From Candidatus Levyibacteriota bacterium (GTDB lineage: Bacteria > Patescibacteriota > Microgenomatia > Levybacterales > UBA12049), in NCBI GenBank assembly GCA_016199085.1, contig JACQHJ010000001.1, positions 3,334 to 67,333 of the forward strand: a DNA stretch of 64,000 nucleotides, written 5' to 3'. Position numbers and translations under genes: made by a program. Positions 8,141-25,404 of this stretch are shown piece after piece; position 1 is the first letter of the stretch; each line of letters begins with the position of its first letter. The notes under the pieces were generated by a model. It searched no databases and was not told the origin of the DNA. It saw only the letters and a program-made list of their open reading frames with translations.

Positions 8141-8181
8141 GCCTGGATTTACCCCTCAATTTTTGTTAAAATATCTTACAT

Positions 8182-8253: not shown

Positions 8254-8311
8254 CTGCATATTTTAGCCTCAAGATTGACATTTATCATATTAGTCTTATA
8301 AGATAATATCA

Positions 8312-10009: not shown

Positions 10010-10040
10010 GACGCTAAGTGTAGTAGAATAAAAAGGATTT

Positions 10041-11093: not shown

Positions 11094-11202
11094 CAAAACT
11101 TATTCTATGGATTATAAAGTAGTTATTATTGAAGAAAGCTAAGAAAAAGGGTTTGGTAAAGGAAATAGGTTCTAACACCCTTCATCCCACGGAGCAAAGT
11201 TT

Positions 11203-11964: not shown

Positions 11965-12015
11965 TACTTAAAATGTATCATATTTTTACTTCTGTTATAA
12001 TATCGCTACTCTTTA

Positions 12016-12399
12016 TTGAGCATGAAATCTAAATCACTTGGCGAACTTGAAAAACAGGTAATGGATATCGTTTGGGAGACTAAAAGTTGTTCAGCGCGTG
12101 ACGTTCTTGGTAAACTGAATCTCAAGAAGAAGTTAGCTTACACTACTATTGCAACAATTCTCCAAAGATTACATAACAAGGGGTTTGTTAAAAGAATAGA
12201 AGATAAAAGAGGATATCTTTATTCGCCAAAGCTAACAAGGAAATTCTACACTAAGAGCATTGCTCAGTCATTCTTAAGAAAATTTATTGATTCATTCGGT
12301 GACAGCGCAATTGCCTCATTTGCCCAAAGCGTTGATAAACTTCCCGAAAAAAAACGTGAATATTTTTTGCAACTACTTAAAACAAATGATAAGAGTTAA
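12016..12399 (+). CDS. BlaI/MecI/CopY-family winged-helix transcriptional repressor
   Basis: LGELEKQVMDIVWE...ARDVLGKL...YTTIATILQRLHNKGFVKRIEDKRGYLYSP is the penicillinase-repressor fold signature. Length is 127 aa. Confidence 0.85.
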   Translation: MSMKSKSLGELEKQVMDIVWETKSCSARDVLGKLNLKKKLAYTTIATILQRLHNKGFVKRIEDKRGYLYSPKLTRKFYTKSIAQSFLRKFIDSFGDSAIASFAQSVDKLPEKKREYFLQLLKTNDKS

Positions 12400-13390
12400 T
12401 AAAAACCTTGTTTTCTTTTCCGGATTGTTCCTTTTCGCAGGAACAATTTTATTCTTGGGCACTGAAAAATTCCTTCCCTTATTCACCCACGCCACATATT
12501 ATTGTCAATCATTTATTAATACCCATATGACCCCTATTCCGCATCTTTTAAGCACTACTCCGGTTGCGGTTTTAGTTATAATAGCGATAGTTTCATTTAC
12601 AAAATTACTTATTTTATTATTTAAAGCTTGGTTCATTAGACGTTCATTAGGAGGAGAAATAATAGCTGAAAGAAGAGTAGATGAACTTATAAGAAATCTT
12701 GGGTTGGAAAAACAAACAAGCATTGTTAAATCAAACAGGAAATTTGCTTTTTGCTTAGGTTTCCGCCGTCCCAAGATCTATTTATCAACTGGGCTAATTT
12801 CGAAACTATCTTTAAAGGAAATAGAAGCAGTTCTTAGGCATGAACAGTATCACTTAGAAAATCTTGATACATTGACTCAGATGATCGCTTCCACAGCTTA
12901 TTCTCTTTTTCCAATCTTTCCATTAGTGGGTGATCTTATTAAGAAATACAGAATAGAACGGGAAATACAAGCTGATAAATTTGCTGTTTCTAAAATAGGC
13001 AATACTTATCCTTTGGTTTCGGCTTTGAGAAAATTTCTTGCGTTTACAACAGTTGAAAATTTAGCTCTTGCTGCAATTGCCGATCAAGATACTCTTGAGC
13101 CAAGAATCTACTCACTTATTAATAAATCATACAATCGTAGGCAATTTCGATTAAAACACCTTTTGCTTACCATCTTTTCATCGCTTGTGATTGGAGCTAT
13201 CTTTATAACCCCAATTTATGCAAAAGAAATACACAGCGATAATCAGGATGTCGTAATGTTATGTGGTGATGGTGGAAAATGTGCCAATTCATGCACAACA
13301 AGTTTGCAAAATCTAAATAAATCAAAAAGACCCATTAATCAAATGTTTGGTGGAAAAAATGCTTCAAATCCATACAGCCTGGCACACTAA
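12386..13390 (+). CDS. BlaR1/MecR1-like M56 zinc metallopeptidase (membrane sensor-transducer partner of the BlaI-like repressor)
   Basis: HEXXH motif (LRHEQYHLEN) in a polytopic membrane protein, translationally coupled to the repressor. The start ATG at 12386 overlaps the repressor stop by 14 nt. The ORF-track start at 12287 is upstream read-through in another frame of the repressor. Confidence 0.7.
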   Translation: MIRVNKNLVFFSGLFLFAGTILFLGTEKFLPLFTHATYYCQSFINTHMTPIPHLLSTTPVAVLVIIAIVSFTKLLILLFKAWFIRRSLGGEIIAERRVDELIRNLGLEKQTSIVKSNRKFAFCLGFRRPKIYLSTGLISKLSLKEIEAVLRHEQYHLENLDTLTQMIASTAYSLFPIFPLVGDLIKKYRIEREIQADKFAVSKIGNTYPLVSALRKFLAFTTVENLALAAIADQDTLEPRIYSLINKSYNRRQFRLKHLLLTIFSSLVIGAIFITPIYAKEIHSDNQDVVMLCGDGGKCANSCTTSLQNLNKSKRPINQMFGGKNASNPYSLAH

Positions 13391-13445
13391 TACTTCGAAG
13401 ATCTCAACTTGACAGAATTAGTAGTATTTTACTACACTATGTAGT

Positions 13446-14246
13446 ATGTCTGTAAAAAAAGAAAAAGGCTCAATAACGAAAGTTAACATGACTGCTAGAT
13501 CAACAATTATTGCTTTGTTTTCCAAGATTACTGTTCCCCAGGCGCTAGTTTTACTTTTAATCATAGCTTCTTTTTTAATTGGAGTTTTATATACAAAAAT
13601 TCAATATCTTGAAAAAAACAGTGCCTTAGAAGCATTGCCTTCCGATCAAGCAGCCGGTGGCCAACAACAGCCTGCGCCGCAAATAAAAGTAAATATAAAA
13701 GATGTTGATATTAAAAATGAACCATATATAGGTGACCAAAACGCTTCGGTTGTCATGGCTTATTGGCTTGATTTTCAATGTCCGTTTTGCCAAAGATTTG
13801 AGACAGAGACCATGCCTTCCTTGGTTGAAAAATATGTAAATACGGGAAAACTTAAAATAGTTTTTAAAGATTTCCAATTCTTAGGTGAGGATTCGACAAC
13901 AGCAGGCCTTGCAGCAAACGCAGTTTGGGAACTAGCCCCTCAAAGCTATTCAACATGGCACAAAGCAATGTATGAAAAACAAGATGGTGAAAACGGAGGA
14001 TGGGGTAAAAAAGAAGACATAATTATTTTGACTAGAACTATATCAGGGATAAATGCTGATCAAGTATCAGCGCTTATGGATCAGAAAAGAGAAGCTTATC
14101 AGAATGAATTGGATGGAGATAATCAGGAAGGAACTAAGTTTGGGATATCAGGTACTCCGGGTTTTGTAATAGGAGAGCAATCTATAATTGGGGCACAACC
14201 CCTTTCAACTTTTACTCAAATAATTGATGCTCTTTTGGAAAAGTAA
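13446..14246 (+). CDS. DsbA-like thiol:disulfide oxidoreductase (thioredoxin fold, membrane-anchored)
   Basis: CPFC active site (WLDFQCPFCQRF), N-terminal TM anchor and DsbA-family length. Confidence 0.8.
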   Translation: MSVKKEKGSITKVNMTARSTIIALFSKITVPQALVLLLIIASFLIGVLYTKIQYLEKNSALEALPSDQAAGGQQQPAPQIKVNIKDVDIKNEPYIGDQNASVVMAYWLDFQCPFCQRFETETMPSLVEKYVNTGKLKIVFKDFQFLGEDSTTAGLAANAVWELAPQSYSTWHKAMYEKQDGENGGWGKKEDIIILTRTISGINADQVSALMDQKREAYQNELDGDNQEGTKFGISGTPGFVIGEQSIIGAQPLSTFTQIIDALLEK

Positions 14247-14258
14247 TAGGTTTTTTCA

Positions 14259-15404
14259 ATGATGCAATCTTTTTTATTCTCACTTACTCAGGTTTTCTCA
14301 AAGCCATCTTACATAGTTTTGTCAATTTTAGCTTTTGTTATTGCAATAACTCTTGCCATATGGCTTCCAAATATTAATTTTCTAGCTCATACTGCAACTT
14401 CGGATGTATATTCTTTTTCTCAAAAAGTTGGAATTATCGGCAGCGTTTTTGGTTCTATTCAAACGAATTTTACGCCTCTTTCCCAAACTATAACGTTTTT
14501 GGTTGCATTTCTTTTTGCAATAAACTTTAGTTTTTTTATTTATTTCTTTCTTCGCGCGGCAAGACTAAGCAAAGAAGCAGGAATTGGTACGTCTGGATTT
14601 CTCTTAGGGTTAATTGGAGTGGGTTGTGCTTCCTGCGGATCTGTTATTCTTTCTTCATTTTTAGGAATAGGCATAACTGCCGGTTTTATCGGCGTTTTGC
14701 CTTTGAAAGGAGCGGAGTTTGGATTACTTAGCATTCTTCTTTTAAGTATTTCTATTTACTTTCTTTCTAAAAAAATTAAAGACCCAATTGTGTGCAAAAC
14801 GAAACCTGCTACTTTTAAGTTTTTATTCAAAAATGTTCCTGCATGGGCTAAAGTTGCCATATTTATTTTTTTGGCGTTTGGCACAGGCGTTATATTTACC
14901 CAGAGGTATTTAAATGGAGAAGATATTATCAGACAAGCTCTTGCCGCAAAATTTGAAATGTTAAGCCAGAACGGTAACTCATCGTGTTTGGGAGATTTTA
15001 AAGATTCAATATCCACGATGCCTGATGATGCCCGCCTTCAGGGGTCATGTTGTTCTCCAATGAACATGCATAGATATAGCGAACAGATTGGAGGACTGAA
15101 GAAGTATAAAAATATTAAAGAGATTCCTCCAGACCCTTATGATATCGAGACGGAGCTTGCAAAAAAATTATTATCTCATTACGATGATAAATTAACTCCC
15201 AAGCAACAAAAAGCCTATGACTATGCCATGCAAAATTCAATGGAAAAAGGACCATGTTGTTGTAAATGCTGGAGATGGTACGTCTATGGAGGTTTAGGAA
15301 AGTTCTTGATTCAGAATTATAACTTTACAGGAGAGCAAATTACAGAAGTTTGGAATTTGTCCGACGGGTGCGGAGGTCAAGGAGATCACGTTAATCATAA
15401 ATAA
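14259..15404 (+). CDS. polytopic membrane protein with intramembrane CxxC and Cys-rich extracytoplasmic C-terminal domain (DsbB/VKOR-like role?)
   Basis: GVGCASCGSV sits in a TM helix. The C-terminal domain has CCSPMNMHRY, GPCCCKCWRW and CGGQGDHVNH. It lies immediately downstream of the DsbA-like gene. Confidence 0.5.
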   Translation: MMQSFLFSLTQVFSKPSYIVLSILAFVIAITLAIWLPNINFLAHTATSDVYSFSQKVGIIGSVFGSIQTNFTPLSQTITFLVAFLFAINFSFFIYFFLRAARLSKEAGIGTSGFLLGLIGVGCASCGSVILSSFLGIGITAGFIGVLPLKGAEFGLLSILLLSISIYFLSKKIKDPIVCKTKPATFKFLFKNVPAWAKVAIFIFLAFGTGVIFTQRYLNGEDIIRQALAAKFEMLSQNGNSSCLGDFKDSISTMPDDARLQGSCCSPMNMHRYSEQIGGLKKYKNIKEIPPDPYDIETELAKKLLSHYDDKLTPKQQKAYDYAMQNSMEKGPCCCKCWRWYVYGGLGKFLIQNYNFTGEQITEVWNLSDGCGGQGDHVNHK

Positions 15405-15883
15405 TGACAACTGAAAATAAAGTTATTATTGGCGGAACAGTTATAACAATACTGGCTATTATTGGAATATCTTTCTTGCTGACAAATAACTCATCTAGCA
15501 CTACCTCAATTCCCGATGAGCAAATAGTTGCCAGAAACGGTCTTCACTGGCATCCAAAACTCTCAATTGTAATTAAAGGACAAAAACAAGAATTAACTGA
15601 TGAGATTGGCTTGGGCAGCGTACACCAAAAAATGCATACACATACCCAAGATTATAAAGACGGATTGGTGCACATGGAAATGTCTGGTGTTGTTACCAAG
15701 GATGAAACAAAACTTAAAAATTTTTTCAGAATCTGGGGAAAAGAATTTAGCTCAACAAAAATATTTGATAAAGCAAATGGAAGCGATGGGAAAGTGAAGA
15801 TGATAGTTAATGGAAAAGAAAATACAGAGTTTGAAAACTATGAAATGCGTGATGGCGATAAAATAGAGATTTCGTATGAGTAG
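15404..15883 (+). CDS. hypothetical membrane-anchored His-rich protein
   Basis: TM anchor followed by HWHPKL...HQKMHTHTQD...HMEM. Overlaps the neighbouring genes by 1 and 8 nt, which suggests an operon. Confidence 0.5.
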   Translation: MTTENKVIIGGTVITILAIIGISFLLTNNSSSTTSIPDEQIVARNGLHWHPKLSIVIKGQKQELTDEIGLGSVHQKMHTHTQDYKDGLVHMEMSGVVTKDETKLKNFFRIWGKEFSSTKIFDKANGSDGKVKMIVNGKENTEFENYEMRDGDKIEISYE

Positions 15884-16076
15884 CAAAACGGTTGCAAAAT
15901 TAACCTGTCCCATATGCCAAAAGTTACAAACCGCAAAAATGCCTATTGATGCTTGTCAATATTTTTATAAATGCCAAAGTTGTGGTAAGATGCTAAAACC
16001 AAAAGAAGGAGACTGTTGTGTCTTCTGTTCATATGCAGATACAAAATGTCCGTCAAAGCAATCCACGTCAGCCTAA
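15876..16076 (+). CDS. small Cys-rich zinc-ribbon/metal-binding protein
   Basis: CPICQK...CQYFYKCQSCGK...GDCCVFCSYADTKCP, 66 aa. The start overlaps the upstream gene by 8 nt. Confidence 0.5.
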   Translation: MSSKTVAKLTCPICQKLQTAKMPIDACQYFYKCQSCGKMLKPKEGDCCVFCSYADTKCPSKQSTSA

Positions 16077-16083
16077 ATTCTAT

Positions 16084-17684
16084 ATGAATAAAGAGCTTTT
16101 AAATAAAATTTCCAGTATGCAAAAGGTGCTTATCGCTGTCTTTATTGCCTTTTTGTTTGTTGCCGGAATATATTTATATTTAAACCCACAAGATAAATTG
16201 TCTCAGTCGAAACAAACCGGAGAGTTTTCAAATGCAGTGAATAATTATCCTCTGGCAAAAACACCCGAAGTAGTAGAACTGAAAAATGGCGACAGTTATA
16301 ATCTTGCCGCAAGTATTGTAAAGAAAAATATAAAGGGTCAGGAGATAAAAATGCTTGCCTATAACGGTTCTATTCCGGGTCCGATTATTAAATTGTCTCA
16401 AGGTGCAGAAATTACAGTTAATTTCAAAAATGAGACCGATGTTGACTCAACAATTCATTCACACGGTGTAAGGGTTGATAATAAGTTCGATGGAGTGGCT
16501 GATGTAACCCAGAAAGCAGTGAAACCTGGAGAGAGCTTTAGTTATAAACTGAAATTTCCTGACGCTGGAATCTTTTGGTATCATCCTCACATCCGTGAGG
16601 ACTATGCGCAAGAACTAGGTATGTATGGGAATTATTTGGTTACGCCAACACAGAAGGATTACTGGGCAGAAGTTGACCGAGAAGAAACACTGTTTCTTGA
16701 TGACCTCCTGACAGAAAACGGAAAGATTGCCTTTTTTGATAGAAATATCGTTAACAACACGTTAATGGGGAGATTTGGTAACGTCATGTTAATTAACGCA
16801 GATGATAAATATCGTCTTTCAATTAAGCAAGGAGAAAGAGTCCGTTTTTATTTAACAAATGCTGCCAACACAAGAGTTTTTAATGCTTCAATTCCCAACG
16901 CTCAAATGCGCTTGGTTGGAGGAGATAACGGGAAATATGAACGGGAGGAATGGATCGATTCCGTACTTTTGGGGCCATCCGAGAGAGCAATTGTCGAAGT
17001 TTGGTTTGATAAGGCGGGAAAATATCAAATTATTCATAAAACTCCGGATAAAACATATACTCTGGGAACAATCTCAGTTGCAAAGAGTCCGGTTACCACC
17101 TCTTATCTTCTTACTCCCCGTGTAAACCAGGATTTTATAAATTCTCTTTCTTTCCTGCGCCCGCTTTTCACAAAGCCCGTTGACCAAAAACTCAATATAA
17201 CCGTAGATATGATGGGAATGAACCAGGGCTCAATGATGATGGGAGGAAACCAGTCAATGGGCATGCAGGATGATAATGACGGCGATAAAATTGAATGGGA
17301 AGACAATATGCAGATGATGAACGCTATGTCTACGAATAAAAACATAAAATGGAAATTAGTTGATGATCAAACAAAAAAAAAGAGAACATGGATATTAACT
17401 GGCAATTTAGAAAAGGTGAAAAAGTTAAGATTTCAATTTTTAACAATCCGAAATCCGAGCATCCAATGCAGCACCCAATACATATTCATGGCCAGAGGTT
17501 TTTAATTTTAAGTACGAATGGTGTATCAAACGATAACCTTGTTTGGAAAGATACTGCTCTTGTGCAAAAAGGCGACACCATGGAACTCTTGGTTGATATG
17601 GAAAACCCGGGAGACTGGCTAATACACTGCCATATCCCAGAACACATGGAAGCAGGGATGATGTCGCAGTTTAAAGTAATTTAA
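16084..17684 (+). CDS. multicopper oxidase (three-domain laccase/CueO-like), reading frame interrupted at an A9 homopolymer (about 17374-17382)
   Basis: Copper ligand motifs HSHGVRVDN and WYHPHIRED in the 5' ORF (16018..17505). HPIHIHGQRF and HCHIPEHMEAGMM (the T1 site) appear in the +1-frame ORF 17388..17684. The two parts overlap around a run of nine A. An N-terminal signal/TM is present. Confidence 0.8.
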
Positions 17685-17720
17685 AATTCTTTTCTTTGTA
17701 AATTTATCATATATTACCTC

Positions 17721-17749
17721 TTGACAAGTGTATTTTGGCAATGATATAT
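17721..17749 (+). promoter_or_regulatory. sigma70-type promoter TTGACA-N17-TGATATAT upstream of the ArsR-YHS gene
   Basis: Consensus -35 hexamer with a 17-nt spacer and an extended -10. This implies a leaderless start at 17764. Confidence 0.55.
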
Positions 17750-17765
17750 TCGAAATATCGAATAT
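17746..17765 (+). promoter_or_regulatory. candidate ArsR/SmtB operator: perfect 8-4-8 inverted repeat ATATTCGA-AATA-TCGAATAT
   Basis: Read directly from the sequence. It overlaps the -10 element and the start codon of the ArsR-family gene. Confidence 0.5.
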
Positions 17766-18252
17766 GTATTCAGAAGTATTTTTCTTTCATGCAAAGCTTT
17801 TGAAAGCCTTGTCCAATCCAAAGCGTCTTGAAATTCTCCAGCTTCTTAGGAATCAGCAGTTAACTGTAAGTGAGATTCAGGAAATGTTGAGTTTGCCCCA
17901 GGGAAATTTAAGCCAGCATCTTCAAGTCCTACGTTTATCCAAAGTAGTTGAGGCGAAACGAGATGGAAAACAAATCCACTATAAGGTCGCTCACAAAAAT
18001 TTCATTAAAGCTAGCGATTTAATGAGAGAAATTCTTATTGAGCAGCACCAAAATGACCCATTAATAAAAGATCTTGGTAGGAAAATGACAGATCTTGTTC
18101 CGCTCTCTTTAGATCCTGTATGCAAAATGAGATTAAGTCCAAAAACAGCATCTTTTATCTCAAAACTAAATGGTGATTCTTACTATTTCTGTGCATCCGG
18201 ATGCTTTGAAACTTTTAATAAAAATCCAAATAAATATATACGCAAAAAATAA
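17764..18252 (+). CDS. ArsR/SmtB-family metalloregulator fused to a C-terminal YHS/TRASH metal-binding domain
   Basis: HTH (LSNPKRLEILQLL...LTVSEIQEMLSLPQGNLSQHLQVLRLSKVV) plus a C-terminus CKMRLSPK...DSYYFCASGCFETFNKNP, which is the YHS signature. The start is taken at the ATG at 17764 (MYSEVFFF...). The ORF track uses an upstream GTG at 17728. Confidence 0.8.
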   Translation: MYSEVFFFHAKLLKALSNPKRLEILQLLRNQQLTVSEIQEMLSLPQGNLSQHLQVLRLSKVVEAKRDGKQIHYKVAHKNFIKASDLMREILIEQHQNDPLIKDLGRKMTDLVPLSLDPVCKMRLSPKTASFISKLNGDSYYFCASGCFETFNKNPNKYIRKK

Positions 18253-18255
18253 TTT

Positions 18256-19137
18256 ATGGAACTTTTAGTTAGTGCATCATTTATAGCAGCTTTTGTAGCA
18301 GGAATTGCAGCCTTGTTTGCCCCGTGCTGCGTAACAATACTTCTTCCCACATATCTTGCTTCTATTTTTAAGGATAGAACAACTGTTTTTCTAATGACAT
18401 TTATTTATTTTTTAGGTCTTTTGACAGTATTTATGCCGATTGGTTTAGGCGCAGTAGCCTTAACCCAAGTTTTTAGTGCTTATCACAACATTATTTTTTC
18501 CCTAGGTGCTATATTTTTGATATTTTTGGGTGTATTTTTACTTTTGGGCAGACAATTTTCTCTTCCGTTTAATGTACACCCCGAACTTAAAAAAGCAAGT
18601 GCTGGATCAGTATTTACTCTTGGAATATTTTCAGGTATTGCTACAACGTGCTGTGCGCCTGTACTAGCTGGGGTATTAACTCTTGCAGCACTGCCCGGAT
18701 CATTTCTGTTAGGAGGAGCATATACTCTTGCCTATGTTTTGGGAATGGTAGTTCCTCTTTTTATTATTGCCACAGTTTTAGACAGAGCAAAATTTACAAA
18801 GAAATTTTTTGCTTTCAGAAAAACCGTAGATTATTCCCTTTTTGGAAATAAAATCAGATTAACCCTTTCCAATCTCTTCTCAGGAGCGATGTTTTTGGTT
18901 CTTGGCATTATCGTTTTAAATCTTGCCAGAACAAACAATCTTACAGCGCATGCGTCTTATCAAGTAAGCATAAATATTTATCTGACAAGATTAACACAAT
19001 TTATCAGTCAGTATACAAAAATTATTCCTGAAGTGGCGTGGGCTTTTGTCTTCGTTTGCATTTTTCTTTTAATTGCCTTTCTTGCAGTTAAACAGCTTAG
19101 AGATGCAAAAAATATTAATAAAGAATCGAAATTATGA
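18256..19137 (+). CDS. DsbD_2/CcdA-like polytopic membrane protein with paired-Cys motifs
   Basis: About 8 TM helices. FAPCCVTILLP in TM1 and ATTCCAPVLAG in a later TM. Overlaps the downstream redoxin gene by 4 nt. Confidence 0.6.
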   Translation: MELLVSASFIAAFVAGIAALFAPCCVTILLPTYLASIFKDRTTVFLMTFIYFLGLLTVFMPIGLGAVALTQVFSAYHNIIFSLGAIFLIFLGVFLLLGRQFSLPFNVHPELKKASAGSVFTLGIFSGIATTCCAPVLAGVLTLAALPGSFLLGGAYTLAYVLGMVVPLFIIATVLDRAKFTKKFFAFRKTVDYSLFGNKIRLTLSNLFSGAMFLVLGIIVLNLARTNNLTAHASYQVSINIYLTRLTQFISQYTKIIPEVAWAFVFVCIFLLIAFLAVKQLRDAKNINKESKL

Positions 19138-19784
19138 AAGAAAATAAGCAAAATTTAATACTAATTGCGCTGATTGTAGGATTTATTATCCTTTTAATAG
19201 TTGTAGTTGTTGCGCTTGCCGATGATTCAAGTAAAACACCCCAAAATATAGAAGTTTCTAATCAGGATGATATGTCAGGTCATCACGAGTCAGCAGCGCC
19301 TGATGAAAATGCATTTAACTCGCTTCTTGGTAAAGTTGCTCCTAATTTTAATCTTAAAAGCTATGATGATAAGGAAATTGAACTTGAAAAACTTCGTGGG
19401 AAAAAAGTAGTAATCTTCTTTACTGAAGGGCTAATGTGTTATCCCGCTTGCTGGAATCAAATGGCGGCATTTGGTCAGGATAGCGCATTTAATAACAAAG
19501 ATGTGGTAACTTTAAATATTGCCGTTGATAATAAAAATGAATGGAAAGATGCTGTTGAGAAAATGCCTGAACTAGCCAAGACTACAGTGCTGTTTGACAA
19601 TAACAGAAGCGTTTCTAATGAGTATGGAGTACTTACCCTTGCCTCTTCAATGCATAAAGGGCAGTATCCGGGACACACATATTTAATTCTTGACAGAAAA
19701 GGCATTGTCAAGTTTATTTATGACGACCCGCAAATGGGTGTCAGAAATGATGAATTGAAAAAGGAACTTGAGAAAATAGAATAA
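19134..19784 (+). CDS. secreted redoxin/TlpA-ResA-like thiol-disulfide oxidoreductase
   Basis: Thioredoxin fold with a CYPAC active site (VVIFFTEGLMCYPACWNQ). N-terminal TM anchor. Confidence 0.75.
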   Translation: MKENKQNLILIALIVGFIILLIVVVVALADDSSKTPQNIEVSNQDDMSGHHESAAPDENAFNSLLGKVAPNFNLKSYDDKEIELEKLRGKKVVIFFTEGLMCYPACWNQMAAFGQDSAFNNKDVVTLNIAVDNKNEWKDAVEKMPELAKTTVLFDNNRSVSNEYGVLTLASSMHKGQYPGHTYLILDRKGIVKFIYDDPQMGVRNDELKKELEKIE

Positions 19785-19785
19785 A

Positions 19786-20763
19786 ATGAGTATTAAAAAT
19801 ATTAAAAAAAAGTATTTTAATAAAAAATCATTTAAAAAAATTAAGAAGTTTTTTAGCGAAAAGGGTCTTAAATCTTTATTAATTTTTCTTGTAATAATTG
19901 CCTCTTTCTTATCTGGAATACTATTTGATAAGGTAACAATACTTAAAAACGCTGAGAATATCAAGAATACGGAGGTTTTGGAGAATAATAAACAGACCGA
20001 AGACCTAACTAGGCTACAAGATAAAGTCCTTAAGGAAAATTATGTTTTTAAAATTAAATGGGGAGATTTGGGTAAAAGAATGGTTGAGGATGGTGTTATT
20101 GATAAAGAAAAGTTTGCCCAGGCCATAACTGGAGAAAACCAACTTCCAAAAGATTTGGATAAATACTTCTCTGACGGACAGGATAAAATAGAAATCAATC
20201 CGCAAAATGCACAATTTTGGGTTGATATTTTGTGGGGACTGGGTCTTGCCAACAAAAATAGGATTTTGGAAGAAGGTGCTATGAAGCAAAATGGAGATAC
20301 TTCTAATTTTGCTTCAACCGGAGGATGGACCCTGGGGCCCGAAGACCCAATGTCTATATATTCAAGATACTCATATATTAATCTTTCCCAAAGGGAGCAA
20401 GAGATTGTAGAAGAAATTGCAGGAAATATTTATAGGCCATGCTGTGGTAATTCAACAGCATTTCCTGACTGTAATCATGGAATGGCAATGCTTGGACTAA
20501 TAGAGCTAATGGTTTCTCAGGGATTTTCCAAAGACGAGATTTATAAAACGGCACTTGCGTTTAATACTTACTGGTTTCCAAATACTTATCTAAATACAGC
20601 TTATTATCTAGATATAAACGGTAAGGATTATAATAAAATATCTCCAAAAGAAATTCTATCTGAAAATTTTTCAAGCGCTATGGGGGCTCAAGCAATTGCA
20701 AAAGAATCTGAAGGTGTTGAGTGGCCTGCGCTTCAAAGTAGCGGAGGAAGCTGCGGAGCGTAG
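19786..20763 (+). CDS. hypothetical membrane-anchored extracytoplasmic protein with Cys cluster
   Basis: TM anchor, then RPCCGNSTAFPDCNHGMAM and a C-terminal GGSCGA. No known family recognised. Confidence 0.5.
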   Translation: MSIKNIKKKYFNKKSFKKIKKFFSEKGLKSLLIFLVIIASFLSGILFDKVTILKNAENIKNTEVLENNKQTEDLTRLQDKVLKENYVFKIKWGDLGKRMVEDGVIDKEKFAQAITGENQLPKDLDKYFSDGQDKIEINPQNAQFWVDILWGLGLANKNRILEEGAMKQNGDTSNFASTGGWTLGPEDPMSIYSRYSYINLSQREQEIVEEIAGNIYRPCCGNSTAFPDCNHGMAMLGLIELMVSQGFSKDEIYKTALAFNTYWFPNTYLNTAYYLDINGKDYNKISPKEILSENFSSAMGAQAIAKESEGVEWPALQSSGGSCGA

Positions 20764-20766
20764 AAA

Positions 20767-21204
20767 ATGAAAAACAATATTAGCATATCAATAAGAAATG
20801 CCGCAGTTTCGACTATTATCCTTTTGCTAATTTATATCTCGATTGTTTCATTTGTAAGCGGATGGGATTTTACCAAAGACCAATTTTCAAGATATTGGTA
20901 TTTTATCATAACGCTTGCGATAGGATTTGGCACTCAAGTTGGTTTTTACACCTATCTTAAAAATGCAATCAAACAAAATGCTTCGCCAAGGGTTTTGGCT
21001 GTTTCAGGGACAACCTCAACAGCGGCTATGATTTCATGCTGCGCCCATTATCTTGTAAATCTTTTGCCAATCTTAGGAGCAGTAGGTATTATTACTGTTA
21101 TTTCTCAATATCAAATTCAACTCTTCTGGGTAGGAATTGCTTTTAATTTTTTAGGAATAGCTTATATGGCAAATAAAGTTTACAAATTTTCAAAAGTAAT
21201 ATGA
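20767..21204 (+). CDS. small polytopic membrane protein with intramembrane CC motif
   Basis: 4 predicted TM helices with MISCCAHYL in TM3. Confidence 0.5.
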   Translation: MKNNISISIRNAAVSTIILLLIYISIVSFVSGWDFTKDQFSRYWYFIITLAIGFGTQVGFYTYLKNAIKQNASPRVLAVSGTTSTAAMISCCAHYLVNLLPILGAVGIITVISQYQIQLFWVGIAFNFLGIAYMANKVYKFSKVI

Positions 21205-21650
21205 GAAATAAATTAATTTTACTTTCGGTCTTAATAATAAGTTTAGCAATTCTTGCTTTTGTTATTTTGAAATTGCCAAGTCAAAACACCCAAACCCAAA
21301 TCCAACCAAAAAGTAAAACAAGTGTTTTATACGAATCAAAAACAGATGAAAAGGGATCAGTAGTAGTAGAGGTCAAGCCGCTTTCGTTAATACCAAAAGA
21401 CAATGTTTCATTTAATCTTACGTTTACGACCCATTCGGGTGATCTTAGCTATGATATTGCTGCTATTGCAAAACTTCAAGACGATAAGGGAAATACATCT
21501 AAAGCCCTATCCTGGACTGGAGGGAAAGGCGGACATCATCTATCGGGTATCCTTACATTCCCTAAACTATCAGAAGATGCTTGGGCTGTGACATTAACAA
21601 TTTCGGGAATTGATAATCAGGATAGGATTTTTGAATGGGAATTAAACTAA
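21201..21650 (+). CDS. hypothetical secreted beta-rich protein
   Basis: Signal anchor followed by a domain with an Ig-like composition (GGKGGHH). Overlaps its neighbours by 4 nt. Confidence 0.45.
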   Translation: MRNKLILLSVLIISLAILAFVILKLPSQNTQTQIQPKSKTSVLYESKTDEKGSVVVEVKPLSLIPKDNVSFNLTFTTHSGDLSYDIAAIAKLQDDKGNTSKALSWTGGKGGHHLSGILTFPKLSEDAWAVTLTISGIDNQDRIFEWELN

Positions 21651-21654
21651 GTAT

Positions 21655-21975
21655 ATGAAAAATAATTTAGTGGCCTGGGTTATAGGAGCGTTGGTTGTCG
21701 GAGGATTTTTTGGATTTTTAATCGGACAAAACAATCAGACATTTGAAAGAGACAGCATGAATGAAGCCGCCTCAATGATGAAAGATAACGGTTCTTACAT
21801 GATGCAGATGGGAAAAATGATGAGGGAAAACGGAATGATGATGCAAAATATGGGAACACAAATGGGAGATCAGGATTTTTCCCAAAAAGGTAAAGAATTG
21901 GAAGATAATGGAGGAATGATGGAGGAAAGAGGTTCCCAAATGAACGATCGCGGTAATGGAATGATGAACTATTAA
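21655..21975 (+). CDS. methionine-rich small membrane-anchored protein (putative Cu(I)-binding, Met-motif)
   Basis: After the TM anchor, 25 of about 80 residues are Met, in MxxM/MMxxM arrays (SYMMQMGKMMRENGMMMQNMGTQMG...GGMMEERGSQMNDRGNGMMNY). Confidence 0.6.
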   Translation: MKNNLVAWVIGALVVGGFFGFLIGQNNQTFERDSMNEAASMMKDNGSYMMQMGKMMRENGMMMQNMGTQMGDQDFSQKGKELEDNGGMMEERGSQMNDRGNGMMNY

Positions 21976-21983
21976 AAAAGGAG

Positions 21984-22256
21984 GTGAGAATAATGTTAAA
22001 ACCAATAGCATTAGCAAATGCGTCTGCAGTTGTTGCACTAGGCATTTATGTTTTGTGCTGGATTTTGGCGCTTGTTGCTCCTGACTTTCTTTTCGTTGTT
22101 GCCAAAAGCTGGTTTCATGCATTTAACATTGACAGCGCGCAGACTGCAGCTTCGCTAAACATTGTGGAATTGGCCTTAGGAGCAGTAGCGCTATCTGTAT
22201 TAGTCTGGGTAACTTTCTACGCCGGGGCTGTTTTGTACAATAAATGGGCAGAATAG
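21984..22256 (+). CDS. small two-TM membrane protein
   Basis: Strong SD (AAAGGAGGTGAG) 8 nt upstream. 90 aa, hydrophobic. Confidence 0.5.
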   Translation: MRIMLKPIALANASAVVALGIYVLCWILALVAPDFLFVVAKSWFHAFNIDSAQTAASLNIVELALGAVALSVLVWVTFYAGAVLYNKWAE

Positions 22257-22455
22257 ATCCTAGCGTTACCGATTAAGTTTTTACAGAGTGGTAATTATAG
22301 TATTTGGCGGGTTATATTTTTATGGAGGAAAATATTCAGCTACGGAGATTATACTTAAAACAAGTGCGTCGGGGGGATACCAGGGAGACGTAGTGATGGC
22401 AGGAATTGCTAACCCAAAAAAATACAAGGAGATAATCAGTAAATATTTCTAGTGA

Positions 22456-22484
22456 TTGACAAATATAAGAAGTCTTGCTAATAT
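22456..22484 (+). promoter_or_regulatory. sigma70 promoter TTGACA-N17-TGcTAATAT driving csoR
   Basis: Consensus -35 hexamer, 17-nt spacer and extended -10, read directly from the sequence. Confidence 0.6.
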
Positions 22485-22503
22485 ATCCCCTATAGGGGGA
22501 TAT
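22483..22503 (+). promoter_or_regulatory. CsoR-type operator: ATATCCCCTATAGGGGGATAT (C-tract/G-tract pseudo-palindrome)
   Basis: Overlaps the -10 element and +1, and lies 19 nt upstream of csoR. It has the same architecture as known CsoR operators (TACCC...GGGTA type). Confidence 0.65.
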
Positions 22504-22521
22504 CTGTAAAGAAAGAAAAAT

Positions 22522-22791
22522 ATGGCATATAGACCAAAAGATACTCAGGAAAGAATCATACACCGCCTTAAAATTGCCAGAGGACAACTGGACGCTGTTA
22601 TAAAAATGGTAGTAGAAGATAAATACTGCATTGATGTAATTCATCAATCCAAAGCTGTTCAGGAGGCATTGAAGCAAATAGACAACATAATGCTTGAAAA
22701 CCATTTACAAACCTGCGTTGGTGATTCTTTCAAAAGTGGTAATCAGAAAAAAGCAACAGAAGAGCTAATGCGGGTTTTTCGCAAAAACTAA
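22522..22791 (+). CDS. csoR: CsoR/RcnR-family copper-sensing repressor
   Basis: 89 aa. RIARGQLDAVIKMVVEDKYCIDVIHQSKAVQEAL...LQTC is the CsoR four-helix-bundle signature with Cys-His-Cys ligands. Confidence 0.85.
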   Translation: MAYRPKDTQERIIHRLKIARGQLDAVIKMVVEDKYCIDVIHQSKAVQEALKQIDNIMLENHLQTCVGDSFKSGNQKKATEELMRVFRKN

Positions 22792-22797
22792 ACAGAT

Positions 22798-23016
22798 ATG
22801 GATTTTACCTATGCCTATTTAATTGCCAGTATTTTACTATTATTTGTTTGGCTTTTTCCAGGTTACGTTGAAGCAGTTTGGAATTTAAAGGCAATTTCAG
22901 GAATTCTGATTGTCGGAATTCCTATCGAAGAACTTTTATTTGCGGCCTCTCTTGGCGCAATGTGGAGCAGTATTTACGAACATTTTAGTTGGTATAAATT
23001 CTCAAAAAAATTATAA
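22798..23016 (+). CDS. small two-TM membrane protein
   Basis: 72-aa hydrophobic ORF located between csoR and the ATPase gene. Confidence 0.4.
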   Translation: MDFTYAYLIASILLLFVWLFPGYVEAVWNLKAISGILIVGIPIEELLFAASLGAMWSSIYEHFSWYKFSKKL

Positions 23017-23048
23017 AGATTTATATAACTTAGGATATGAATAAAAAT

Positions 23049-23171
23049 ATGACTACATATATTTGTCCAATGCATAAAGAAGTGCAATTAGATAAACCCG
23101 GTAGATGCCCAAAGTGTGGCATGAAATTAGTTGAAAAAGGAAAGGAGAAAAACAATGAATGCTGCTGCTAA
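23049..23171 (+). CDS. 40-aa stand-alone YHS/TRASH-type metal-binding mini-ORF ending in CCC (possibly a frameshifted first metal-binding domain of the ATPase)
   Basis: MTTYICPMHKEVQLDKPGRCPKCGMKLVEKGKEKNNECCC. It nearly duplicates the ATPase N-terminus (IVYSCPMHSEVRSDKPGTCPKCGMRL). Its 3' end overlaps the ATPase start in a different frame. Confidence 0.5.
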   Translation: MTTYICPMHKEVQLDKPGRCPKCGMKLVEKGKEKNNECCC

Positions 23172-25404
23172 AAATGGAAAAATAATAGTTTATTCTTGCC
23201 CGATGCATTCGGAAGTTCGCTCAGACAAGCCCGGAACCTGTCCAAAATGCGGTATGAGGCTTATTGAAACAAAAGTGGAGAAAGACCACAAAGATGGAAA
23301 TCAAACTATGAAACACGGAGAGCATGTAATGCAGCCTACTTCTGAAATGTCATTCTGGGATAAATTCAAAATGAGCATGACCATGAGTATGGGTATGGAG
23401 CATGGAGGGTTGGCTGGGAGGGAGATGGCAAAACTTATGGAAGAGGATATTCGCAATAAGTTTTTCTTTGCACTTTTTTTATCGTTTCCGATTATTCTCT
23501 ATTCTCCACTTGGAACCCAATTTCTAAAAATAAGTTTGCCGGAACTTATTCCAACACCCTGGCTTTTGTTTTTACTCACAACTCCTGTTTTTTTCTATTC
23601 CGGATGGATTTTTTTGTATTCAACCTACAAAGCATTACAGGCGAAAACCTTAAATATGGCAGTTCTTATTGCGGTCGGTATTACAGCAGCTTATGTCTTT
23701 AGTGTTGTTTTGACTCTTCTTGGAAGCTTAGACTCGTATTATGAGGCTGCAGCACTTCTTATTACTTTTGTTCTCTTTGGGCACTGGATGGAAATGAAAT
23801 CAAGAAGGGGGACAACAGATGCTCTGCAGGCGCTTTTTAATTTAGTACCCCCTCAGGCAAGAATACTTAGAAACGGGAGAGAAGAACTTATCCCAACTTC
23901 CCAGGTAAAGCTTGGAGATATTATTATTCTTAAACCAGGAGATAAAGTGCCGGTTGACGGGCAAATCTTAGATGGCGAAACAGCAATAGATGAGTCTTTG
24001 GTAACGGGAGAGTCACTCCCGGTTGCCAAGAAAAAAGGAGATAATGTAATTGGAGGCTCAATTAATACTTCCGGTTCAGTTAGATTTAAAGCAACAAAAG
24101 TCGGAGAGGATACTGCTCTTGCTCAGATTGTTAAAATGGTAGAAACAGCGCAAAGCTCAAAAGCTCCGGGACAGAAAATTGCAGACAGGTTTGCAAAATA
24201 TCTCGTAATTGTTGCAGTCGGAGGCGGACTGCTAACTTTCTCAATCTGGTTTTTTGTAATTGGTCAAACTTTAATGTTTGCCTTAACTTTTGCAATTTCT
24301 ACTGTAGTAATAGCCTGTCCTGATGCCTTGGGGCTTGCCACGCCCACTGCTGTTGCAGTTGGAACAGGACTTGGTGCAAAGCACAATATCCTTATTAAGG
24401 ATGCACCCACCCTTGAGCAAGCTTCAAAAATTCAAGCAATAGTTTTAGATAAAACTGGGACTTTGACCCAAGGCAAACCTACCATTACCGACATCGTTTC
24501 CGCAGAAGGATTTTCGGAAAACGAAATCATTGAACTTGACGCAGCAGCGGAAGCCAAATCTTCTCATCCATTAAGTCAGGCAATTTTGGAGGAAGCAAAG
24601 AAAAGAAAATTAACTATTCCAACTAAGGTTGAAGGTTTTAAAAATCTTGCAGGACATGGGGTTGAGGCGAAAGTTTTAGGAAAGCACGTTCTTGTTGGAA
24701 CCGTAAAGCTTATGAATGATAGGAGCGTAGATATAACATCTTTACAAAAAGAAATTGATAGATTACTAATGCAGGGAAAAACAATTATGGTTTTGGCGGT
24801 TGATGGGGAAATTGCCGGAATAGCGGCAGCCTTAGATCCAATAAAAGAAAATGCAAAAATCGCAGTTGAGCGTATGAAAGAGCTTGGACTGGAAGTTGCT
24901 ATGATTACGGGAGACAATAAAAAAACCGGAGAATCAATTGGAAGGGAGCTTGGAATAGATAGGGTTTTTGCTGAAGTACTCCCCGAAGATAAAGCAAAAT
25001 ATGTTAAAAAACTTCAGGATGAAGGTAAATTCGTTGCAATGGTTGGAGATGGAGTTAATGATGCTCCGGCTCTTGCACAGGCTGACATTGGAATTGCAAT
25101 TGGTGCAGGAACAGATGTGGCAATTGAGACTGCAAAAATAGTCCTTATGAAATCAGATCCTCTTGATATTTTAAGAGCAATTAAGCTTTCAAAAGCAACC
25201 GTTACAAAAATGAAACAAAATCTATTCTGGGCATCGATTTACAATTTACTGGCAATTCCGATTGCCGCAGGAGTTTTATATCCTAAATTTGGCCTAGAAC
25301 TTCGTCCTGAGTTTGCAGCACTTCTTATGAGTGTATCCTCAATTATAGTAGCAACAAATGCAGTGCTTTTGAATAGAGCTGAAAAAAACCTGATAACTAT
25401 TTAA
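23155..25404 (+). CDS. copA: P1B-type heavy-metal (Cu+) translocating ATPase with N-terminal YHS domain and Met-rich segment; TM6 motif is CPD rather than CPC
   Basis: DKTGTLT, GDGVNDAPAL, SSHPLSQAI (HP motif), TM7 YN (SIYNLL), TM8 MSVSS, a TGES actuator motif, and an N-terminal CPMH...CPKCGM. The TM6 region reads IACPDALGLATPTA. The start is assigned at the ATG at 23155, which has a GGAGA SD. The ORF track uses a TTG at 23131. Confidence 0.9.
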   Translation: MNAAAKNGKIIVYSCPMHSEVRSDKPGTCPKCGMRLIETKVEKDHKDGNQTMKHGEHVMQPTSEMSFWDKFKMSMTMSMGMEHGGLAGREMAKLMEEDIRNKFFFALFLSFPIILYSPLGTQFLKISLPELIPTPWLLFLLTTPVFFYSGWIFLYSTYKALQAKTLNMAVLIAVGITAAYVFSVVLTLLGSLDSYYEAAALLITFVLFGHWMEMKSRRGTTDALQALFNLVPPQARILRNGREELIPTSQVKLGDIIILKPGDKVPVDGQILDGETAIDESLVTGESLPVAKKKGDNVIGGSINTSGSVRFKATKVGEDTALAQIVKMVETAQSSKAPGQKIADRFAKYLVIVAVGGGLLTFSIWFFVIGQTLMFALTFAISTVVIACPDALGLATPTAVAVGTGLGAKHNILIKDAPTLEQASKIQAIVLDKTGTLTQGKPTITDIVSAEGFSENEIIELDAAAEAKSSHPLSQAILEEAKKRKLTIPTKVEGFKNLAGHGVEAKVLGKHVLVGTVKLMNDRSVDITSLQKEIDRLLMQGKTIMVLAVDGEIAGIAAALDPIKENAKIAVERMKELGLEVAMITGDNKKTGESIGRELGIDRVFAEVLPEDKAKYVKKLQDEGKFVAMVGDGVNDAPALAQADIGIAIGAGTDVAIETAKIVLMKSDPLDILRAIKLSKATVTKMKQNLFWASIYNLLAIPIAAGVLYPKFGLELRPEFAALLMSVSSIIVATNAVLLNRAEKNLITI

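Follow-up and report, generated by a model that had tools for sequence, protein, structure and literature searches.

Three operons for copper homeostasis and thiol redox in a Candidatus Levybacteria genome and the orphan protein families linked to them

How copper is handled beyond the cytoplasmic membrane has been worked out well in Gram-negative bacteria (CusF, CueO, PcoC), but much less so in single-membrane cells. The candidate phyla radiation (CPR) makes up a large share of bacterial diversity, and no description of extracytoplasmic copper handling in this group was found in the literature searched. Copper loci that combine a P1B-type ATPase, CsoR or CueR, a multicopper oxidase and thiol-disulfide proteins are known already, as in the cop and cso operons, the Scs and DsbDEG systems and the TlpA-Sco pathway. 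TlpA reduces ScoI for copper loading, and the Scs thiol system gives copper tolerance. Copper tolerance is likewise ascribed to DsbDEG (bioRxiv 10.1101/2020.08.17.255257), CutF is reported to be needed for oxidase maturation (PMC8456105), and the copXL locus of Staphylococcus aureus provides an example from a single-membrane cell, where the surface-anchored copper-binding protein CopL is encoded beside an extra (P1B-3) ATPase (PMC5947656). Here we describe a copper-homeostasis and thiol-redox gene cluster of ~13 kb, located at positions 12016-25404 of a 64-kb stretch (the window) of contig JACQHJ010000001.1 [GenBank assembly GCA_016199085.1] from Candidatus Levybacteria (CPR; Patescibacteria, Microgenomates). 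Two of the window proteins match the NCBI entries HY344_00090 and HY344_00135 of a metagenome-assembled genome of this group with 100% identity. The reading that we favour, with a confidence slightly better than even, is that efflux by the ATPase is combined with membrane-anchored Cys/His copper acceptors that are kept reduced by a dedicated CcdA-like pathway.

All positions are those of the window, and all features described lie on its + strand, as does every open reading frame (ORF) from 12016 to 25404 that has a family match or conserved homologues. The window proteins were scanned against Pfam and NCBIfam, covering the ORFs between 5567 and 29754. Genes of the cluster overlap by 1, 4, 4, 8, 14 or 17 nt or are separated by gaps of 1-12 nt, and this tight spacing is broken by three intergenic gaps, each of which holds a promoter-like site. 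The locus is three operons, not one, each with a promoter-like site and a palindromic operator of its own. Operon 1 consists of a BlaI/BlaR1-like pair followed by the genes for DsbA, o381, o159, a GDCCVxC protein and a multicopper oxidase. Operon 2 opens with an ArsR-YHS gene and continues with those for a CC-type DsbD_TM protein, a CxxxC redoxin, o325, o145, o149, a Met-rich protein and a DUF5676 protein, and operon 3 encodes CsoR, a small HMBD protein and the P1B ATPase. These three modules are separately regulated and recur in different orders across CPR. An initial annotation of the window had recognised a same-strand, tightly packed cluster of copper and thiol-redox genes, and both the family matches and the gene junctions bear this out, but the extent that it gave, 13446-25404, is too short, as the cluster begins upstream at 12016 with the BlaI/BlaR1-like pair. 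Its gene list also needs correction, with the ORFs at 22798-23016 and 22288-22452 being C-terminal remnants and a 44-aa HMBD ORF at 23037-23171 having been left unlisted.

The regulator of operon 2 resembles a described sensor. The copRTA/copMA locus of Sulfolobus combines a TRASH-domain regulator and a TRASH chaperone with CopA. It shares with the window locus a presumed copper sensor next to a copper ATPase locus, in which a TRASH/YHS domain with three Cys is joined to a DNA-binding domain, and small stand-alone TRASH/YHS proteins are found in relatives of the window locus too. Here, the helix-turn-helix (HTH) part is of the ArsR/SmtB type instead, and the predicted targets are extracytoplasmic proteins, the ATPase having its own CsoR. 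The fused ArsR/SmtB HTH and YHS/TRASH three-Cys domains are encoded at 17764-18252 (PF01022, 8.2e-12, 45.3 bits vs a cutoff of 22; PF04945, 7.1e-11, 42.4 vs 30.3; NF033788, 78.7 bits vs 55), with the start revised to the ATG at 17764, 3′ of the promoter. C132, C155 and C159, numbered from the previous start at 17728, are conserved. The TG-extended promoter-like site TTGACA-18-TATATT (17721-17765) is overlapped by a perfect 8-4-8 dyad, ATATTCGA-AATA-TCGAATAT (17746-17765), which overlaps the -10 element and has no other exact copy in the 64-kb window. The proposal that ArsR-YHS and CsoR each have an operator thus holds, both operators lying at sigma-70-like promoters and each being unique in the window.

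The next two genes of operon 2 recall the CcdA/DsbD-TlpA-Sco, ScsABCD and DsbDEG systems, where a metal-responsive regulator governs the joint transcription of a DsbD_TM protein, a membrane-anchored partner of the thioredoxin fold and Cys proteins that face outwards. The gene at 18256-19137 encodes a DsbD_TM/CcdA-like membrane protein (PF02683, 35.4 bits vs a cutoff of 27.1), previously described as DsbD_2-like, and it is of the DsbD type although PF13386 gives no match. Unlike the CcdA-TlpA-Sco and Scs counterparts, it has vicinal CC pairs, as FAPCC in transmembrane helix (TM) 1 and TTCCAPVL in TM4, so that the redox Cys are present in each of the pseudo-symmetric helices, but as vicinal pairs, and at least 51 of 55 aligned sequences share these pairs. 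CPR also encode a CcdA of the canonical single-Cys form, joined to a TlpA-like domain with CxxC (locus L167), which argues that the CC type is a specialised paralogue tied to copper loci. The DsbD_TM gene overlaps the redoxin gene by 4 nt, and the association of a CC-type DsbD_TM with a thioredoxin-fold partner points first to electron transfer.

That partner (19134-19784) is predicted to be a membrane-anchored redoxin of the Prx fold (PF00578, 7.8e-18, 65 bits vs a cutoff of 26) with a CxxxC motif, C102-YPA-C106, and conserved M173, H174 and H181. The two Cys, H174 and H181 are at least 85% conserved. Its nearest solved structure is the BCP-type peroxiredoxin 2ywn (1.8e-10). Against this structure, Tyr103, three residues before the Cys aligned with the peroxidatic one, occupies the Thr/Ser position by our own reading of the alignment, and His181 is aligned with the Arg taken as catalytic, so that the catalytic PxxxT/SxxC motif and the conserved Arg of peroxiredoxins are not present. 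A peroxidase is unlikely, because Tyr and His stand at the catalytic Thr and Arg positions and an extra Cys creates the CxxxC. The combination of CxxxC, a distal His and a thioredoxin fold is that of Sco proteins, but this is a match of pattern, and the Sco models (PF02630 and the SCO NCBIfam) gave none. No Sco, TlpA, ScsB alpha-domain or ScsC family match was obtained in the scanned proteins, and the presumed clients, o325 and the C-terminal domain of o381, are uncharacterised, which also separates the window genes from TlpA-Sco and Scs. Given the metabolism of CPR, no cytochrome oxidase requiring metallation would be expected.

o325 (19786-20763) is predicted to be an N-in, membrane-anchored extracytoplasmic protein, characterised by the motif RPCC-x-N-x5-DCNHG, with an invariant Cys3His site, and a C-terminal GGSCGA tail. 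The RPCC, the DCNHG and the C-terminal Cys (C323) are found in 142-148 of 150 divergent family representatives. Clustering of the family gives >7000 groups at 90% identity and, at 50%, 566 representatives, and homologues across CPR lineages share 39-77% identity. The best candidate for the fold is CcmH, a thiol-disulfide oxidoreductase, but there was no Pfam match and no HMM match to the CcmH sequences of the PDB, and the LRCxxC active site is not present, its place being taken by RPCC...DCNHG. A Foldseek search of o325 against the PDB gave no match, and searches of PDB sequences with o325, o381, o159 and a profile of the o325 C-terminal domain returned only noise. One o325 relative bears a rhodanese domain.

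Downstream of o325, o145 (20767-21204) is a small membrane protein with about four hydrophobic segments and an SCC-x-H motif (SCCAH in the window) that is invariant in the alignment. It has no family match, 21 homologues among the 80 best o325 loci and no homologue on plasmids. In most of these 21, the o145 homologue lies directly 5′ of an o149 homologue, and the two form a conserved pair. o149 (21201-21650) is a membrane-anchored, putatively extracytoplasmic domain with conserved T77-H78 and G110-G-H-H113, relatives of which match PF18705 (DUF5643). In locus L022, a single ORF (10866-11966) comprises a CC-type DsbD_TM domain and a C-terminal o149-like ectodomain. The membrane-anchored protein of 106 aa encoded at 21655-21975, Met-rich by inspection of its sequence, is lineage-specific and not supported as a conserved gene, as no homologue was found in any fetched locus; in its place, relatives hold a Met-rich DUF305/CopM-like protein, DUF305 being the family of the copper-binding protein CopM (PMC4335983). 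The last gene (21984-22256) predicts a two-TM protein of DUF5676 (PF18926, 4e-9), present in 15 of the 80 loci, mostly within ~1 kb 3′ of the DsbD_TM gene, and literature searches on this family found nothing relevant.

The distribution of o325 was determined with one genome per species, and at least 594 stretches encode it. Most of the informative record titles name CPR lineages, including Levy-, Davies-, Roizman-, Ames-, Yanofsky-, Jorgensen-, Nomura- and Sungbacteria and Peribacteria. For linkage, all window proteins were compared by tblastn with the 80 best o325 loci, 32 of which have at least 8 kb on both sides. In this full-flank subset, a CopA homologue was found in 29 of the 32 loci, DsbD_TM in 25, and CsoR or ArsR-YHS in 25, and linkage of o325 to copper genes is far beyond chance. 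The recurrent core order is CsoR or ArsR-YHS, o325, DsbD_TM, sometimes DUF5676, then the ATPase, with DsbD_TM directly adjoining o325 in 44 of the 80 loci. Of 47 relatives, 38 have a CsoR-type palindrome 5′ of csoR (see below), and o325 and DsbD_TM are thus probably part of a CsoR-controlled unit in most CPR. In the window, the ArsR-YHS gene occupies the usual place of CsoR before the o325 unit, and the same replacement directly upstream of o325 was seen in eight other loci. The core is the usual cop locus of CPR, the rule and not the exception, and what sets the present assembly apart is a size at the upper end. The suggestion that such a cluster is unexpected in a reduced genome therefore has to be dropped. 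Co-occurrence of the orphan genes with copA, csoR or the oxidase gene in relatives was found for all but one, the Met-rich ORF, and the Cys sites of o325, DsbD_TM, o381 and o145, including the pairs on which the initial annotation had relied, are conserved.

Homologues of o325 with ~35% identity (E 2e-35) are also found on plasmids of Burkholderia contaminans, B. thailandensis and Paraburkholderia fungorum, where they are annotated as hypothetical proteins. The homologue on NZ_CP090638.1 (129397-146155, locus L085) has a Tat-type signal and the same motifs, and follows a P1B ATPase gene in a run that opens with cueR. This run further includes genes for a Met-rich protein, DUF2933, a CcdA with SSCCAPVL, a Prx-like protein with CQPC and a conserved His, a thioredoxin, and ICMT. 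DUF2933 and ICMT accompany copper ATPases in marine Gammaproteobacteria (PMC8478169) and were also found in CPR islands. In a second plasmid locus, L086, the neighbours of o325 are P1B ATPases, DsrE-family proteins and HMA proteins, and a gene for a SAM-dependent methyltransferase is adjacent in both L085 and L086.

Operon 3 is comparable with CsoR-CopZ-CopA of Bacillus subtilis and the cso operon of Mycobacterium tuberculosis, with which it shares Cys36, His61 and Cys65 of CsoR, a GC-rich palindrome on the csoR promoter and the form of a putatively autoregulated operon ending in a P1B ATPase gene. The promoter-like site TTGACA-17-TAATAT (22456-22502) is overlapped by a CsoR box, TATCCCCTATAGGGGGATA (22484-22502), that lies over the -10 element. 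The box is single in the 64-kb window, where 0 are expected, and the palindromes 5′ of csoR in the 38 relatives have the similar form C3-5-N2-8-G3-5. CsoR (22522-22791; PF02583, 3.3e-23, 82.3 bits vs a cutoff of 22.8) carries the Cu(I)-type ligands Cys36, His61 and Cys65, along with Tyr35 and Glu81. All 47 relatives keep Y35, C36, H61 and E81, while 29 of them have C at position 65 and 18 have H, the latter x-C-H-H variant being seen among the homologues of loci L003-L080.

The product of the last gene (23155-25404) is a P1B-type copper ATPase with an N-terminal HMBD and a Met/His-rich stretch (PF00122, PF00702, PF19335; TIGR01511, 589 bits vs a cutoff of 397). Its earlier designation as CopA-type agrees with the TIGR01511 score, but TM4 carries CPD (ACPDALGLATP) instead of CPC or CPH, and the N-terminal HMA (MxCxxC) domain was not found, HMBD (PF19335) being present in its stead. 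The CPD is kept in 8 relatives at 60-83% identity, and the motifs YN(x)4P (YNLLAIP) and MxxSS (MSVSS) are present. This subtype has been noted for three rhizobial enzymes in a paper that reports no functional test of it (PMC5552934). A further difference from the B. subtilis operon is that no HMA-type CopZ is encoded. Instead, an ORF at 23037-23171, read from the sequence and overlapping the start of copA, predicts a 44-aa stand-alone HMBD-like protein (YICPMH...CPKCGM) that ends in ECCC and gave no NCBIfam match. It is a possible cytoplasmic copper chaperone that might substitute for CopZ. An HMBD analogue ending in GGCCG precedes the copper ATPase gene of locus L054 (19778-19945), and in L169 (3786-3935) a TRASH-like 49-aa analogue ending in GGCCGK lies 5′ of a lycopene-cyclase-domain gene of the kind that elsewhere precedes the ATPase gene. 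A remnant of such a gene, encoding 72 aa, is found between csoR and the HMBD ORF (22798-23016). It matches PF18916 over positions 34-92 only and corresponds to the last two TM helices of a lycopene-cyclase-domain membrane protein of ~235 aa, full-length genes for which lie 5′ of copA in six of the loci, with this CarR-like domain appearing as a companion of copper ATPases.

The regulatory pair of operon 1 resembles BlaR1/BlaI and MecR1/MecI, in which the gene for an M56 zinc protease overlaps that for a BlaI-family repressor and a TACA...TGTA dyad lies at the target promoter. The first gene (12016-12399) encodes a winged-helix repressor of the BlaI/MecI/CopY family (PF03965, 3.7e-27, 95.4 bits vs a cutoff of 22.6). 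Its top NCBIfam match is CopY/TcrY (TIGR02698), at 49 bits under the cutoff of 122, and inspection of its C-terminal part shows no Cys, hence the CxCx4CxC metal site of CopY is not present. The second (12386-13390) predicts a BlaR1-like M56/M48 zinc-protease sensor with HEQYH (PF05569, 9.9e-13, 48.3 bits vs 31; PF01435, 1.3e-12). No penicillin-binding domain was found in this protein of 334 aa (blaR1_generic, 35.6 bits vs a cutoff of 400). In its place is a tail of ~55 aa (residues ~280-334), predicted to be extracytoplasmic, with a His and three Cys in the motif EIH...C-x4-6-C-x3-C, which recurs in most of eight aligned relatives and may be a metal or redox sensor for the DsbA and oxidase genes. 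These targets also differ from those of BlaR1/BlaI. At the dsbA promoter, the promoter-like site TTGACA-18-TACACT (13409-13446) is overlapped by a BlaI-type 7-3-7 dyad, TACTACA-CTA-TGTAGTA (13430-13446), a single copy in the window against an expectation of 0.09, and 7 of 9 relatives have the same dyad in the interval from blaR1 to dsbA. A BlaI-like gene is kept upstream of dsbA in eight loci. Among loci that hold close oxidase orthologues, on which the gene order of this module was judged, the arrangement BlaI-BlaR1-DsbA-(o381)-o159-(GDCCVxC)-oxidase is present, whole or in part, in 7.

DsbA-o381-o159 is a conserved unit across the relatives. The DsbA-like thioredoxin-fold protein (13446-14246; PF13462, 1.7e-27; PF01323, 4.8e-16) is membrane-anchored, with CPFC and the cis-Pro, and C112, P113, C115, T237 and P238 are conserved. 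o381 (14259-15404) is composed of a polytopic membrane module with an intramembrane GCASCG (residues 1-~190) fused to a putative extracytoplasmic domain with eight near-invariant Cys and conserved His (residues ~225-381), and matches no Pfam or NCBIfam model. The family comprises 157 clusters, in many of which the C-terminal domain occurs alone. In that domain, the eight Cys are at least 90% conserved (61 sequences), and the AF2 model, with pLDDT >90 for residues 230-370, has no fold match among solved PDB structures. At least 11 of 150 o325-family representatives join the N-terminal TM-CxxC module to o325-type domains, with E values down to 2.5e-14, which indicates that both orphan ectodomains share one kind of membrane partner. 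Fusions of this composition were seen in representatives P0290, P0304, P0310, P0312, P0339 and P0345. For o325 and o381 themselves, the profile-profile comparison was insignificant (best E 0.002, probability 13%), and no homology is claimed. The same applies to o145 or the o381 N-terminal module against DsbD_TM, where hhalign found only a short motif match at a probability of no more than 15%, and to that module against o145.

Two small genes separate o381 from the oxidase gene. o159 (15404-15883) is membrane-anchored and, in an alignment of 11 homologues, has six conserved His (H48, H50, H74, H78, H80, H90), Glu92 and a C-terminal part that is beta-grasp-like. There is no Pfam match, and NCBIfam gives only a weak MoaD-like one. 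It lies directly upstream of the oxidase gene in three loci, its end abutting or overlapping the oxidase match. The ORF at 15876-16076 had been counted among the uncharacterised orphans, most of which do lack a family, but is a small Cys-rich protein with a GDCCVxC domain (NF041374, 8e-27, 93.3 bits vs a cutoff of 40). The protein is probably cytoplasmic, as no hydrophobic segment is obvious. Its gene adjoins that of the oxidase in five loci, and homologues occur on 353 plasmids, in ars and Cus contexts. Of two such homologues, on a Sulfuricella plasmid and a Caulobacter plasmid, one is within an ars operon and the other has genes for an RND pump and a copper-binding protein as neighbours. GDCCVxC proteins thus seem to be general accessories in the handling of soft metals, and literature searches on them found nothing relevant.

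The oxidase itself (16084-17684) has the three domains of a multicopper oxidase (PF07732, PF00394, PF07731) with an N-terminal anchor and a Met-rich insert. Three domains with copper ligands, a Met-rich insert and a small accessory gene directly upstream are also features of CueO and the CutFOG system, o159 standing in the position of cutF (PMC8456105). Differences are the TM anchor, the BlaI/BlaR1-like control, the six-His family of o159, which is unrelated to CutF, and a frameshift. The N-terminal TM helix anchors the protein, and no Tat motif was seen. The frame is broken at an A9 run (17373-17381), and one extra A would give an oxidase of 533 aa with all four Cu-ligand motifs (HSH, HPH, HPIHIH and HCHIPEHMEAGM). 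An alignment of about 40 orthologues over the junction shows them in frame (TKK-ENMDINW) and lacking a long A run, and the A9, where the orthologues would need A7, is a lineage-specific change. Its context, ACA AAA AAA AAG, is slippery in the manner of dnaX. Programmed -1 frameshifting at A_AAA_AAG was rejected, since the ~40 orthologues are in frame and none has a comparable A run at the TKK codons. Possible origins of the frameshift are a mistake in the assembly, recent pseudogene formation or a tract that slippage rescues. The multicopper oxidase of the initial annotation is therefore correct as to family but not intact, and its conclusion that the organism is regularly exposed to oxygen is weak, the sole O2-dependent enzyme being the one that is frameshifted here.

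The favoured combination of ATPase efflux and reduced outer-face acceptors is built from what was observed, namely which genes are present and how they are linked in relatives, the operators, the invariant residues of the ligand sites and the fusions of domains. CsoR would sit on the GC-rich palindrome over its own -10 and be released when Cu(I) binds at Cys36/His61/Cys65, whereupon the small HMBD-CCC protein and the CPD-type P1B ATPase would be made. The ATPase, perhaps fed by the HMBD-CCC protein, would export Cu(I) from the cytoplasm to the outer membrane surface of the cell. The ArsR-YHS repressor would control the outward-facing o325 and o149 with the membrane partner o145, the Met-rich protein and DUF5676, and o325, o145/o149 and possibly the Met-rich protein would capture or buffer exported or incoming Cu(I). 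A surface copper binder beside an ATPase, as proposed for o325 and o149, would be analogous to CopL of copXL, but CopL is a lipoprotein of a different family and no homology to o325 or o149 was found. The thiolate ligands would have to stay reduced in a compartment that also holds the oxidising DsbA/VKOR, and the CC-type CcdA/DsbD_TM and the CxxxC-His redoxin could supply reducing power from the cytoplasm, as CcdA/DsbD-TlpA does for Sco. In operon 1, the BlaR1-like protease with its His/Cys3 tail may cleave the BlaI-like repressor and so turn on DsbA, o381, o159, the GDCCVxC protein and the oxidase. The CueO-like oxidase, aided by o159, would then turn Cu(I) into Cu(II), with DsbA and o381 serving the oxidase branch. 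The metal specificity, the direction of electron and metal flow and the hand-off partners in this scheme are what we infer from sequence. The relay proposed in the initial annotation had been described as periplasmic. CPR cells are not known to have an outer membrane, and, given the N-terminal membrane anchors of these proteins, the outer face of the membrane is the more accurate term.

Several points weigh against this scheme. In the literature searched there is no study of o325, o381, o145, o149 or o159, in agreement with the earlier statement that these orphans are uncharacterised. Vicinal CC pairs are unnecessary for the known chemistry of CcdA and could be metal ligands, and the redoxin step is not general, as most loci have o325 beside DsbD_TM without any redoxin. 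Copper sensing by ArsR-YHS and BlaR1 is assumed from context only. The ATPase has CPD and not CPC, its presumed specificity for Cu(I) being drawn only from TIGR01511, the YN and MxxSS motifs and the adjacent CsoR, and with a broken oxidase frame and two gene remnants part of the system may be inactive here. A bolder extension, which we hold only tentatively, is that o325, the CcdA-like protein of the CC type and the o381 TM-CxxC module form an unrecognised outer-face acceptor and relay for P1B-exported copper that is present in more than one phylum (CPR and the Burkholderia plasmids), with the vicinal Cys moving metal or electrons, and that in parallel the BlaR1-type protease with the His/Cys3 tail is a new extracytoplasmic copper sensor driving the oxidase operon.

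The CC pairs are also the starting point of the MerT-like relay suggested by the initial annotation, in which the CC-type DsbD_TM, o145 and the o381 N-terminal module would carry metal as MerT and MerF carry Hg(II), forming a thiol-lined Cu(I) route between o325/o149 outside and the cytoplasmic YHS, HMBD and GDCCVxC proteins, for import to the ATPase or delivery to the oxidase. Vicinal Cys in TM helices (FAPCC and CCAPVL of DsbD_TM, SCCAH of o145) together with soluble Cys-rich partners are indeed what MerT, MerF and MerC systems present, and the pairs are invariant and unneeded for classical CcdA electron transfer. The flexible GGSCGA tail of o325 with its conserved Cys is like the metal-delivering C-terminal Cys tail of MerA, small cytoplasmic HMBD/TRASH proteins ending in CC(C) recur 5′ of copA, and the o149 domain is fused to DsbD_TM in L022. 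Moreover, most loci have no thioredoxin-fold gene between o325 and DsbD_TM, and DsbD belongs to the LysE superfamily, which includes metal-ion transporters. However, no protein matches a Mer family at the thresholds used (E <= 0.01 for Pfam, E <= 0.1 for NCBIfam), there is no MerA, MerP or MerR-type match among the scanned window ORFs, and the context points to copper and not to mercury. The main di-Cys membrane protein is a DsbD_TM/CcdA above its gathering score, and its 4-nt overlap with a thioredoxin-fold gene is the classical pairing for electron transfer; hhalign links to it from o145 and the o381 module do not go beyond the short motif described above. Copper import beside an exporter would also be futile unless tightly channelled. 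We regard the name MerT-like as unsupported by family membership and the relay, the main rival to the favoured scheme, as unlikely.

Somewhat less probable again is general envelope repair of the Salmonella ScsABCD or Pseudomonas DsbDEG type, in which the CcdA-like protein, the redoxin and a CcmH-like o325 would undo copper-catalysed wrong disulfides and sulfenylation, the Cys/His proteins being oxidoreductases that act on clients and not copper binders. It would account for CcmH as the best fold match of o325, for a reductive or isomerase counter-arm to be expected where DsbA and VKOR are encoded alongside, and for a conservation of o325 across CPR that is more enzyme-like than that of a metal sponge, and copper-induced Dsb systems (bioRxiv 10.1101/2020.08.17.255257) and Scs systems provide precedents. 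Yet o325 has RPCC and a distant Cys-x-His in place of the CcmH CxxC, CxxxC with His and Met in the redoxin resembles the copper-binding site of Sco and not a CxxC, the His-only o159, o149 and the Met-rich members are ill-suited to thiol repair, and the tight linkage of the core is to the ATPase and copper sensors, not to DsbA. That another soft metal or metalloid (Hg, Ag, As, Cd) is the main target, to which the vicinal-Cys proteins are tuned, appears improbable. The occurrence of GDCCVxC homologues within plasmid ars operons, the many elements sensed by ArsR-family regulators, the presumed specificity of the CPD motif and the vicinal Cys typical of Hg(II) sites would all allow it. Set against these are the Cu(I) x-C-H-C fingerprint of CsoR and its classical box, a CueO-like oxidase with a Met-rich insert, an ATPase scoring above the cutoff for the copper subfamily and bearing YN(x)4P and MxxSS, and the Burkholderia counterpart beside cueR, and no MerA, ArsB or ArsC match was found among the scanned window ORFs.

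What appears to be new are the families o325, o145/o149 and o159 and the o381 modules, the CC-type CcdA, the BlaR1-like control of an oxidase operon, and the HMBD/TRASH mini-proteins with CC tails, and the literature searched held no account of any of them. The window proteins o325, o145/o149 and o159 and the 8-Cys domain of o381 match no Pfam model, and gene order, shared operators and domain fusions, by tying these orphan families to copper pumps and sensors, give them a testable job. The presence of o325 homologues on plasmids of cultivable Burkholderia makes ordinary genetics possible without growing a CPR organism. A copper/thiol system that is standard in reduced CPR genomes is also relevant to the ways in which episymbionts living attached to surfaces deal with metals and oxidants.

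Decay is visible in the locus, as the oxidase is out of frame and two gene stumps remain. The second stump, a 54-aa ORF at 22288-22452 between the DUF5676 gene and the csoR promoter, has no family match and is not supported as a conserved gene. Its last 44 aa are the C-terminus of a 170-aa membrane protein found in locus L087 (9705-10217). A mobile island was considered and rejected, as the scan of flanking ORFs gave no match to an integrase or transposase family and the GC content is unremarkable, and the word island is apt in a functional sense only. VKOR (26715-27128; PF07884, 1.7e-22) is encoded 1.3 kb downstream, outside the cluster proper, with a GNAT gene and a DUF4342 gene in between. 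The DsbA-like protein, the redoxin and a VKOR just downstream had all been named correctly (PF13462, PF00578, PF07884). Both members of a DsbA/VKOR oxidative folding pair are present (PF13462/PF01323 with CPFC; PF07884), VKOR is the likely reoxidant of DsbA, and the two adjoin the csoR-o325 core in two other loci, L019 and L034. Upstream of the cluster, the region 7529-11093 contains genes for a sortase, a subtilase and an S9-family peptidase, and a tRNA gene (8182-8253). Downstream, just 3′ of CofD, the 510-aa protein encoded at 28222-29754 has an NQR2/RnfD/RnfE-like membrane region, below the Pfam cutoff, together with FAD_binding_6 and NAD_binding_1, which is an unusual fusion.

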